A DNA stretch of 64,000 bases. Source: Octopus vulgaris (Eukaryota). The notes under the pieces were generated by a model that searched no databases, was not told the origin of the DNA, and was given only the letters and a program-made list of their open reading frames with translations. The DNA lies in NCBI GenBank assembly GCA_951406725.2, contig OX597828.1:27218001-27282000 (forward strand), written 5' to 3'. This document shows, piece by piece, positions 22,235 through 26,994 of the stretch. The position numbers and the translations under genes are program-made. Every line of letters starts with the position of its first letter. The first letter of the stretch is position 1.

Positions 22235-23686
22235 TATATATATGTATGTGTGTGTGTGCTTGTGTATGCATAATATATATTGATGTATGAATGAATACAG
22301 TATGAATATTTTTTTTTTATTCACGCTATAAGAAAACACGACTGATTGAATGTGCTCTTTAAGTTTATTGTTATTTTTCAGCTTGTGTGTGTGCGTGCAT
22401 ACATGCATGTGTATGTGTGTGTACATATATATATATGTGTGTGTGCATACATGAATTCAATAATAGATAAACTATTTTCAAACTATGTGGTTTATATATA
22501 TATATATATATATGTATATGCACAGACAAGGTACTTCTCATAGGAAGTTATTATAAATAATTACTTGTAAATAAAGCACCTTGAGATTATTAGTAATAAT
22601 AAATTATAATGAGCGATATATTCTTATTCACCCCTCAAAATATCGGAGACCATTTGTAATGGGAAAAGCTGTTTTGTGTTAGAAAGAATAGATCTGTATC
22701 TTATATTCACATATATTTTCATTAGTTTTAGTTCCAAGATTGTGGCCATGCTGGAGTAGTATGGCTACTACCTTCAAGATTTGTTTGTCAGTTATATTGA
22801 TACAAGTACTTAGTTTTGTTTTGATTTTTATCCAGTCCTTATTTTTTTTAATTACTAAGTTAGTCTTTTGGATACAACACTTTTTTTTATGCCAGTAAAA
22901 ACACACTTAAATACCCACATGTTTCTATGTGCAAAATTCTGTTCAGGTGGCATTAGTCAGTCTGGGTTTGTGGTCGGAGATACCTGTTCACGGTGCAATG
23001 GGATCAAACTCCTTACCACTTTGTTGAGAGAATCTGGTTCATTTTAACTCTTATTATGTTAATACATGCAAGCTTCTTCCATTGGCATTTCTGTGATTTT
23101 ATAATGTGCTGGAGCTTAATGACCTGTTATTAATTAAGCTCATAATTATCAAGGATGTTGAGAGAAATCTGGTTTAGATTTAAATAGGCATAAATATAAT
23201 TGAATGTTAAGAAGCTGACTTTGCAACTGCATTGTTTCAGGTTAAATCCCACTGCATCACACCTGGGGCAAATGTCTAGTAGTATAACCCCAGGCTGACC
23301 TGTGCCTTGTGAGTGGATTTGGTAGACAGAAAGTGAGTGAATCCCTCTTGTGTGTGTTTGTCTCCTACCACTACTTGACACCTGGTGTTGTTTTGTTTAC
23401 ATCCCTGTAAGTTAGAGGTTCAGCAAAAGAAATTGATGAAATATGTATCAGCCTTAAAAATAAATATTAGGGCTAATCTGTTTGACCCCTTTCAGGCAGT
23501 GTTCCAACATGGCCACAGTCCAATGACTGATACAAGTTAAAAAAAAAGGAAGATAAAACAAAGATGAAGCCACTGGAACAAAGCCATGGACCCATGTATC
23601 TTCTGAAGTGGAATCCAGCCATTCTCGAATCCTTTTCATTCCAAACTGCATGAGATTAACCCTTTCTGCTTCTTTAATACAGACTT

Positions 23687-24133
23687 CCTTTACGGGACTG
23701 TCACGTTAAGTTGACAGTATACAACCGCTCTATCGTTCCACCACCGCTCATATCTCTCTGAGATATTTAGAAATTTTATATTTCTAATTTTGGTGATCAG
23801 TGAATAAACTTCACTGAAAATATATATGTTTACGAAGGCTTTACAAGCATTTTCCGCTAGCAGGCCAAGCTACACCAGACTGATGATGAGCAAGACTCAG
23901 AAACATGCATGTCTCTGGATGCAGGCCTAACTGTTAGGGGTGCTTATCTCCCCTTCGTAAACATAAGGACACAGGAAATGTGTTAAAGCCGACAGGAAGC
24001 GTCAATGCTTCCTAGGGCTAAATAGCAGTGGTGTGATTCCCTTTATGGGACTGTCACGTTAAGTTGACAGTATACAACAGCTCTATTGTTCCACCACTGC
24101 TCATATCTTTCTGAGATATTTAGAAATTTAATA
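23687..24133 (+). mobile_element. Candidate non-LTR retrozyme: 353-bp hammerhead-containing unit plus partial second copy
   Basis: 23687-~23780 is repeated at 24040-~24133 (period 353). The unit contains an intact HHR and about ten helices, and no meaningful ORF. Confidence 0.75.
23875..23918 (+). ncRNA. Type I hammerhead ribozyme (canonical core)
   Basis: Stem I ccaga/tctgg, core CTGATGA, stem II tgag-caaga-ctca, GAAA, palindromic stem III ACATGCATGT, GUC triplet with predicted cleavage after 23913. Confidence 0.9.
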
Positions 24134-24139
24134 TACTCT

Positions 24140-24541
24140 CTCTTTTACTCTTTTACTTGTTTCAGTCATTTGACTGTGGCCATGCTGGAGCACCGCCTTT
24201 AATTGAGCAACTCGACCCCGGGACTTATTCTTTTGTAAGCCCAGTACTTATTCTATCGGTCTCTTTTGCCGAACCACTAAGTAATGGGGACATAAACACA
24301 CCAGCATCGGTTGTCAATGCTCGGGGGACAAACACAGACACACAAACACACAGACGCATATATATATATACATATATACGACGGGCTTCTTTCAGTTTCT
24401 GTCTACCAAATCCACTCACAAGGCTTTGGTCGGCCCGAGGCTATAGTAGAAGACACTTGCCCAAGGTGCCACGCAGTGGGACTGAACCTGGAACCGTGTG
24501 GTTGGTAAACAAGCTACTTACCACACAGCCACTCCCGCACC
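24140..24541 (-). mobile_element. Family B SINE, full length, young
   Basis: Close reverse complement of 59617-60035, with CpGs largely preserved. Interrupts the second retrozyme repeat. Confidence 0.9.
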
Positions 24542-25311: not shown

Positions 25312-26271
25312 AAACAACAACTCCCCTTCCTCGATATCCTCATTAAGAAAGCTAATAATATAATAGAAACAGACATATACTATAAGCCTACAGACTCTAA
25401 GCAACATCTTCCATTCAATTCATGCCACCCCAGACACACCAGGATGAATATCCCCTTCAATCTAGCAAAAAGGATATGCACTATAGTCTCTAACGCAAAC
25501 ACCAGAGACACACGACTACAAGAACTAAAAGATACCCTAATCACCAGGAACTATCCACCTTCACTTATTGACAAGTGCATTCAACGTGCCCTTCAACTTA
25601 ACATCAAGGAACTGAGACATCCCAAATCAAAGAAAAACTTACAACCAAAAGCCTTACCATACATCTCCACACACAACCCTCTCAATAACGAAGCCTTCGA
25701 CACCATCCTCCACAACATACCCCTCCTAAAAAAAGACCACAGAATGAACACAATCCTCCAAACACACACGATCATAAAAAGCAAAAGACAGCCTAGATCC
25801 ATGAAAAGTCTCCTTACACAAGCCCGAATTCACTCTTCAACACAGAAGCCGACAGTAAAAAAATGTGGAAGACCCAATTGCGGGATATGCGACTATCTAA
25901 TCGAGGGTTCTGAGTTCTCCTTCAAACAGGGACAACGGTTTACAGTGAAAAGCAACTTCACATGTGCTTCGGAGAACCTAATATACTCACTAACCTGCTC
26001 CGGGTGTCAAGAGCAGTACATAGGCCAAACAAAAAATGGTTTGCGTAAACGAATGGCCCTGCACAGATCCCAGATAAAAATTCCCCAAAACAGAAAAATA
26101 GCTTTTAGCCAACACATAGATACTTGCGCCAACAAAAAAACACCAAACTTCAGAATTTTCCCCCTCTACCAATTTAGGGACGATACAACCTCGAGACAAA
26201 GAATAAGTAAAGAAAATCTCTTTATTACAAAATACAAGCCACTTCTTAACGGGTCTACGACAAACAATTAA
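25312..26271 (+). CDS. Penelope-like polyprotein C-terminal part: RT motif E/thumb, Zn-finger linker, GIY-YIG endonuclease (N-terminus missing)
   Basis: LPFLDILI...TDIYYKPTDSKQHLPFNSCHP...IP...RI (PLE RT end and thumb), CGRPNCGIC (Zn finger), NLIYSLTCSGCQEQYIGQT...RMALH (GIY-YIG). About 320 codons without a stop. The ORF-track start at 25177 is flank and microsatellite read-through. Confidence 0.92.
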   Translation, partial: KQQLPFLDILIKKANNIIETDIYYKPTDSKQHLPFNSCHPRHTRMNIPFNLAKRICTIVSNANTRDTRLQELKDTLITRNYPPSLIDKCIQRALQLNIKELRHPKSKKNLQPKALPYISTHNPLNNEAFDTILHNIPLLKKDHRMNTILQTHTIIKSKRQPRSMKSLLTQARIHSSTQKPTVKKCGRPNCGICDYLIEGSEFSFKQGQRFTVKSNFTCASENLIYSLTCSGCQEQYIGQTKNGLRKRMALHRSQIKIPQNRKIAFSQHIDTCANKKTPNFRIFPLYQFRDDTTSRQRISKENLFITKYKPLLNGSTTNN

Positions 26272-26956: not shown

Positions 26957-26994
26957 CAGTTGAAAAGGTCTCAAAATGACCGAAACCGGTACTG
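26957..26994 (+). ncRNA. Minimal type I hammerhead ribozyme, U3-A8 variant
   Basis: cag TTGAAAA ggtc-tcaaaat-gacc GAAA ccgg TA ctg. Palindromic ACCGGT stem III and a GUA triplet. Confidence 0.75.

Follow-up and report, generated by a model that had tools for sequence, protein, structure and literature searches.

The window analysed here, a stretch of 64,000 nucleotides from Octopus vulgaris, contains one dispersed member of an ORF-less multicopy hammerhead family, which is a non-LTR retrozyme. We consider it likely that this copy was inserted by a Penelope-like RT-endonuclease, and likely that a circular monomer RNA was the template. Judged by its sequence, the octopus unit works like a non-autonomous Penelope element and has the traits of a retrozyme that were tested: the hammerhead, unit size, GC content, pairing, lack of an ORF and target duplications all agree with the identity proposed in the initial annotation. 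The dependence on a Penelope enzyme, also proposed there, is now backed by the restriction of 3' ends to two sites, by inverted insertions that use both of these sites, and by duplications and AT-rich targets.

The unit, its fold and its copies

The features of the window copy are given below in window coordinates; in unit numbering, position 1 is the first base after the predicted cut.

23687..24133, + strand: the insertion as a whole, covering 1.27 monomers of 353 nt
23682..23781, + strand: first copy of the overlap, 100 nt, 92% identical to the second
24035..24134, + strand: second copy of the overlap, at a spacing of 353 from the first
23825..23965, + strand: long rod around the ribozyme, 14-bp helix 23825-38/23952-65 plus inner helices
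23875..23918, + strand: type I hammerhead, with the cut predicted at 23913/23914
24051..24070, also 23698-23717, + strand: stem-loop conserved in the family (pattern matches), immediately before the short end
23732..23734, also 24085-24087, + strand: family short-end site, unit 172-174, putative RT start 1
23735..23791, + strand: tail of ~55 nt with two hairpins, from end mapping across the family
23786-23791, + strand: family tail-end site, unit 226-231, putative RT start 2
23853..23878, + strand: region where an ORF1-only LINE lineage has inserted in sister copies; the window copy has no insert there

The direct repeat with period 353 reported earlier was thus recovered. The monomer has a GC content of 41-42%, and its longest stop-free frame is 59 aa, in line with the earlier reading that it holds no ORF. 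The window copy is 5'-truncated: its 5' end is of the variable type, while its 3' end lies a few bases before the family tail end. Its best candidate for a target duplication is 7 bp, which is at chance level. It is an unusually long member of the family, since in the motif-only sample only 1 of 26 arms exceeds unit length (7 of the 26 span the cut).

The hammerhead has all core nucleotides (CTGATGA at 23880, GAAA at 23900, GTC at 23911-13) and a stem I formed by 23875-79/23914-18. The word "perfect" used in the initial annotation goes too far, since the base of stem II is non-canonical and stem III is weak. The stem II base is U-A in the window copy and is unpaired in 20 of 35 copies, mostly as C.A. 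Stem III consists of 3 bp with a palindromic loop and a pairing probability below 0.1, the ribozyme fold lies +2.5 kcal/mol above the minimum, and an Rfam search returned no hammerhead match at the gathering score, nor at E up to 10. The loop of stem III comes in three palindromic variants, which suggests by analogy that cleavage would proceed in a dimer. The axolotl retrozyme is described as cleaving in this form (PMC7229834); for Xenopus retrozymes, the text of a vertebrate preprint gives only 1 of 9 predicted dimers as cleaved (bioRxiv 10.64898/2026.07.22.740005).

All ten helix pairs named earlier are present at or near their positions (10/10), and the 14-bp rod is perfect, with pairing probabilities of 0.88-1.0. 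Circular folding yields -115.4 and -119.0 kcal/mol, far better than dinucleotide shuffles (z -6.3 and -8.1, 100 shuffles each); none of 60 GC-matched stretches of the window reaches -115 kcal/mol. A structure of 107 pairs is 92.8% paired across 35 monomer-length copies and drops to 31-44% in slid controls, which bears out the claim of a largely paired unit. Double-sided changes occur in 24 of the 107 pairs, a count matched by 0 of 500 shuffles, which ignore the relatedness of the copies; the rod, stem I and stem II covary between copies. The set comprises 35 of the 37 monomer-length copies (two short neighbours in the L010 array were omitted), and two inner helices were counted in one register, which differs from that of the initial annotation.

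A search of the 2.8-Gb genome with the unit produced 3,872 candidates; the 40 that were scored contain at least 63 matches. Exact matches number 1,461 for a 28-nt stem-loop pattern, 368 for the hammerhead pattern and 33 for the exact 25-nt core of the window copy, with 0 in the control each time; hence the unit is multicopy, as had been predicted. The predicted tandem copies also exist, as partial tandems and as arrays of up to about three units (L010, L015). Most copies are fragments below unit length, and an LTR-like layout was seen in none of the inspected copies. The 37 monomer-length copies have a mean identity of 85%. The family looks old, because the nearest dispersed neighbours are at most 94% alike; there is no young copy among those compared.

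Contigs of three presumed-RNA runs and of one unlabelled, genome-sized run cover the unit and the ORF1 described below, with strand, level and circularity unreadable. Unit words are also contained in runs X14-X18 and X20, which carry three further organism labels, at shares of 0.07-0.43. A looser hammerhead pattern has 5,990 genome matches versus 675 in the control and takes in several families (L375-L404). Some of these are related to the unit and have periods near 345-365 nt; others carry a U3-A8 core variant, which is also present in a Penelope-like element encoding 781 aa.

The surroundings of the window copy contain other repeats. Two inverted copies of a common interspersed repeat, presumably a SINE, flank it at 23205-23466 and 24226-24523. 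A 5'-truncated Penelope-like fragment at 25312-26250 (+), 66% identical to the 781-aa family, sits in an AT repeat 1.2 kb downstream and is an insertion separate from the retrozyme copy; a hammerhead-like motif accompanies it near 26960-26992.

Insertion ends and the copying route

The 209 distinct stem-loop hits, from 120 loci, fall into 68 that end at unit 164-177 (peak 172-174), 68 that end at 214-232 (peak 226-231), 69 that read on and 4 others. Of the terminal ends, 136 of 140 thus lie at two sites ~55 nt apart, neither of which is the ribozyme cut. The initial annotation had expected permuted start points; the 5' ends are indeed scattered, with no pile-up at the cut, but the 3' ends are fixed at these two sites. 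Head-to-head insertions combine one end of each kind, one per arm, in 30 of 33 cases, and both arms carry outward-pointing 3' ends. With 14 insertions excluded for their microsatellite flanks, target duplications of 8-16 bp were found in 16 of the remaining 19 head-to-head insertions, against duplications of at least 8 bp in 11 of 342 mismatched pairs. The flanks are 79% AT versus 63%, and 60 of 136 ends abut microsatellites. Neither poly(A) nor a shared LINE 3' end was found at the termini.

About 190 family loci were inspected. Among 119 arms, 84 span the cut, 35 are longer than one unit, 8 span the cut twice and 1 starts at it; these arm-length counts are inflated, as the loci were picked by similarity or exact motif and not randomly. 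They leave out 89 rows that end elsewhere, most of which arise because the rod matches itself on the opposite strand.

A Penelope protein has been shown to cleave both strands of AT-rich DNA and to start at two positions inside the RNA, which define the tail (PMC11167929); a tail, an inverted arm and partial tandems are described for Penelope elements (PMC8557442). The octopus family agrees closely with this picture, except in the length of its tail. Ends fixed at two places are the mark that initiation at two internal sites leaves in the Penelope tail, and because of them we take copying by a Penelope-type RT to be suggested. We presume the following course. Transcripts of multi-unit copies would self-cleave at GUC, probably with the help of dimers that form via the palindromic stem III; ligation of the cleaved RNA would give a circle of ~353 nt. 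The Penelope protein would then nick both DNA strands, and reverse transcription would start internally, at unit ~173 or ~228, and pass through the uncut ribozyme site, sometimes for more than one round.

The circular template for the family copies is plausible, and only plausible because a read-through multimer would give identical DNA. An uncut linear multimer, or template jumping, could thus have served a Penelope-type insertion, with the ribozyme incidental to copying; we regard this as unlikely. It has in its favour the arrays of about three units; the compensatory changes in the rod and the ribozyme stems between subfamilies, the lack of a 5'-end pile-up at the cut and the mostly circular products of mussel repeats of 350-390 bp (PMC7229834) speak for the circle, none of them decisively.

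As to the enzyme, the genome has three young Penelope-like families with intact RT-GIY-YIG frames of 781, 775 and 884 aa, none of which shows DNA similarity to the unit. The initial annotation had named, as an outcome that would speak against it, a unit always lying within an ORF-bearing Penelope-like element; an RT-GIY-YIG ORF is attached in 0 of 190 loci. As far as sampled, the retrozyme is by its sequence non-autonomous, and no autonomous element with the sequence of the unit was found among the loci and families compared. Several candidate partners were considered and rejected. At L258, L270 and L272, related hammerhead repeats beside Penelope ORFs are separate AT-repeat insertions; the adjacent RT fragment at L116 is inverted and decayed; the looser hammerhead pattern leads to other families, with an ORF only in the 781-aa family (30 loci). 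A young Penelope-like element with 6.17-kb tandem units and long CA-rich spacers was observed at L255-L257.

These data bear on the proposal that an autonomous Penelope element, its ORF copies missed or lost, has the unit as its pseudo-LTR, the tandems being truncation debris. Xenopus retrozymes are reported as homologous to pLTRs in 24 of 57 families (bioRxiv 10.64898/2026.07.22.740005), and our inspection covered only about 190 family loci. In those 190, however, a GIY-YIG end directly upstream in the same orientation occurs 0 times, the ribozyme is preceded by further unit sequence or by a LINE insert, and several related families are likewise ORF-less where seen. We find the pseudo-LTR reading quite improbable for the present family; an ancient pLTR origin of the unit is possible.

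Movement of a SINE-like element by an L1/Tx1-type LINE, its inversions arising by twin priming, is very improbable: APE-RT LINEs are present in the genome, and duplications of 8-16 bp and 5' truncation are typical of LINEs too, but the termini have no poly(A) and no common LINE 3' end, and the outward 3' ends on both arms with two distinct fixed ends are unlike twin priming, so that end mapping largely refutes it.

A LINE lineage in sister copies

Some sister copies have an insert of ~1.7 kb between unit ~293 and ~318, which encodes an ORF1-like frame of 445-465 aa with a CCHC knuckle and no RT. The insert has the features of a HAL1-like element: ORF1 with CCHC, no ORF2, an AATAAA 3' end and a target duplication. 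Junctions between its 3' end and the hammerhead have 56 exact pattern matches (control 0). At the 29 loci with both junctions, the median duplication is 16 bp; it is at least 12 bp in 23 of 29 own pairs versus 148 of 812 cross pairs, and at 17 of 29 loci no cross partner does better than the own one. Since the junction pairs carry their own duplications of ~16 bp, the LINE lineage has inserted repeatedly and independently just 5' of the hammerhead. This APE-type, mostly ORF1-only lineage inserts in the sense orientation, just 5' of stem I, and the duplication leaves the ribozyme whole. We considered and rejected the idea that the 353-nt unit arose from a 2-kb gag element by deletion, because the insert shows ends and duplications of its own.

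A minority of insertions are composites, 4 of the 25 in the motif-only sample. The 16 junction loci without a close ORF1 match comprise 8 with a distant ORF1, 1 with a piece of ORF2 that resembles an autonomous APE-RT LINE at 70%, and 7 with nothing recognised beside the junction. The LINE domains present are APE, RT and zf-RVT, and the homologues carry no clade names; the lineage may be Tx1-like. The cargo protein has one named homologue, from Octopus bimaculoides; its look-alikes include ZCCHC3-like clusters, which is a weak lead. Purifying selection acts on ORF1, with a dN/dS of 0.05-0.15 in all 15 pairs compared, a signal that may stem from the history of the LINE only. Among the best 30 ORF1 hits, 25 are flanked by hammerhead repeats of the 353-nt family or its relatives and 17 by the 353-nt family itself, the query itself coming from such a locus; the share exceeds the 20% of flanks given for target-specific LINEs in PMC4494074.

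ORF1-only units also stack 5' of autonomous LINEs elsewhere in the genome. At L185-L196 and L205-L223, several kinds of ORF1-only unit form arrays of up to about ten. These all lie in one site of another repeat, possibly Helentron-like, and some are stacked 5' of an APE-RT LINE. Targets of ORF1 elements at L160, L187, L203 and L204 follow TATA boxes at a distance of 25-50 nt, and CCAAT motifs accompany some of them. The retrozyme has an AT run (window 23817-23827) 30-50 nt before the LINE target.

It is likely that the Penelope route also served to recopy some of the ~2-kb composites. We argue this from inversions. At L161, a head-to-head inversion breaks in ORF1, both arms share the junction, their overlap is 98.4% alike, and they end at the short site and the tail site; at L359, a single junction is repeated on both arms; at L342 and L343, the inversions lie inside ORF1. 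Four single-arm truncated composites, where no outer duplication was found, are weak evidence for recopying.

It is tempting to go further and to propose that the LINE-carrying copies give a self-cleaving coding RNA circle of ~2 kb, with one zinc-knuckle RNA-binding protein, copied by the Penelope RT. We put this forward tentatively and hold it to be rather unlikely. If true, it would be a protein-coding retrozyme of delta-like layout, formed repeatedly within an animal genome by one parasite homing on another. From target positions, the LINE may home on transcription starts; if so, its homing site is possibly the start site of the retrozyme itself.

Relation to known elements and significance

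With the mussel, coral and axolotl non-LTR retrozymes (as described in PMC7229834) the octopus family shares a type I hammerhead, a self-paired sequence without an ORF, tandem units of 150-450 bp (350-390 bp in mussels), GC below 50%, multiple copies and duplications above 4 bp. It differs in having mapped fixed 3' ends, inversions and a tail, and in that its copies are mostly sub-unit fragments and LINE-targeted; its RNA circle is a predicted one. The anole Poseidon element PAc (as described in PMC11167929 and PMC8557442) has in common with it the two-end tail, the inverted 5'-truncated arm, partial tandems, AT-rich or microsatellite targets and a hammerhead upstream of the ends. Compared with Penelope elements, the octopus unit lacks an RT-EN ORF, its hammerhead retains stem III, and its tail is ~55 nt versus the 30-40 nt reported.

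Penelope dependence of retrozymes has already been proposed (PMC7229834; bioRxiv 10.64898/2026.07.22.740005), and a 2020 review states that animal retrozymes show no motif indicating a helper element (PMC7761336). The preprint treats vertebrate retrozymes as non-autonomous PLE derivatives; its conclusion is the same as ours, with co-occurrence and pLTR homology as its basis. It favours local tandem growth, whereas the octopus copies were inserted separately and have duplications of their own; its main text contains none of the words tail, octopus, cephalopod and mollus-. Target-specific Tx1 LINEs (Tx1 in Tx1D, Tx1-Mar; PMC4494074) share with the octopus lineage insertion into another transposon and sequential tandems, and HAL1 (PMC5753468) shares ORF1-only derivatives. 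Here, in contrast to both, a ribozyme retroelement serves as the target, and the composite seems to use its host element's route of movement. We found no paper on a cephalopod retrozyme or on a LINE targeting retrozymes, with the caveat that the supplement of PMC7229834 may list cephalopods; nor did the two-site signature, a ribozyme-homing LINE or composite mobility come up in the literature, Repbase and Dfam being outside the scope of that search.

The two putative start sites are now mapped to the nucleotide on a defined fold. Together with three intact candidate enzymes in the same genome, this makes the helper, the initiation sites and the question of the circle directly testable. A LINE homing on the 5' side of the ribozyme means three-layer parasitism, and would offer a natural route to a coding ribozyme circle.
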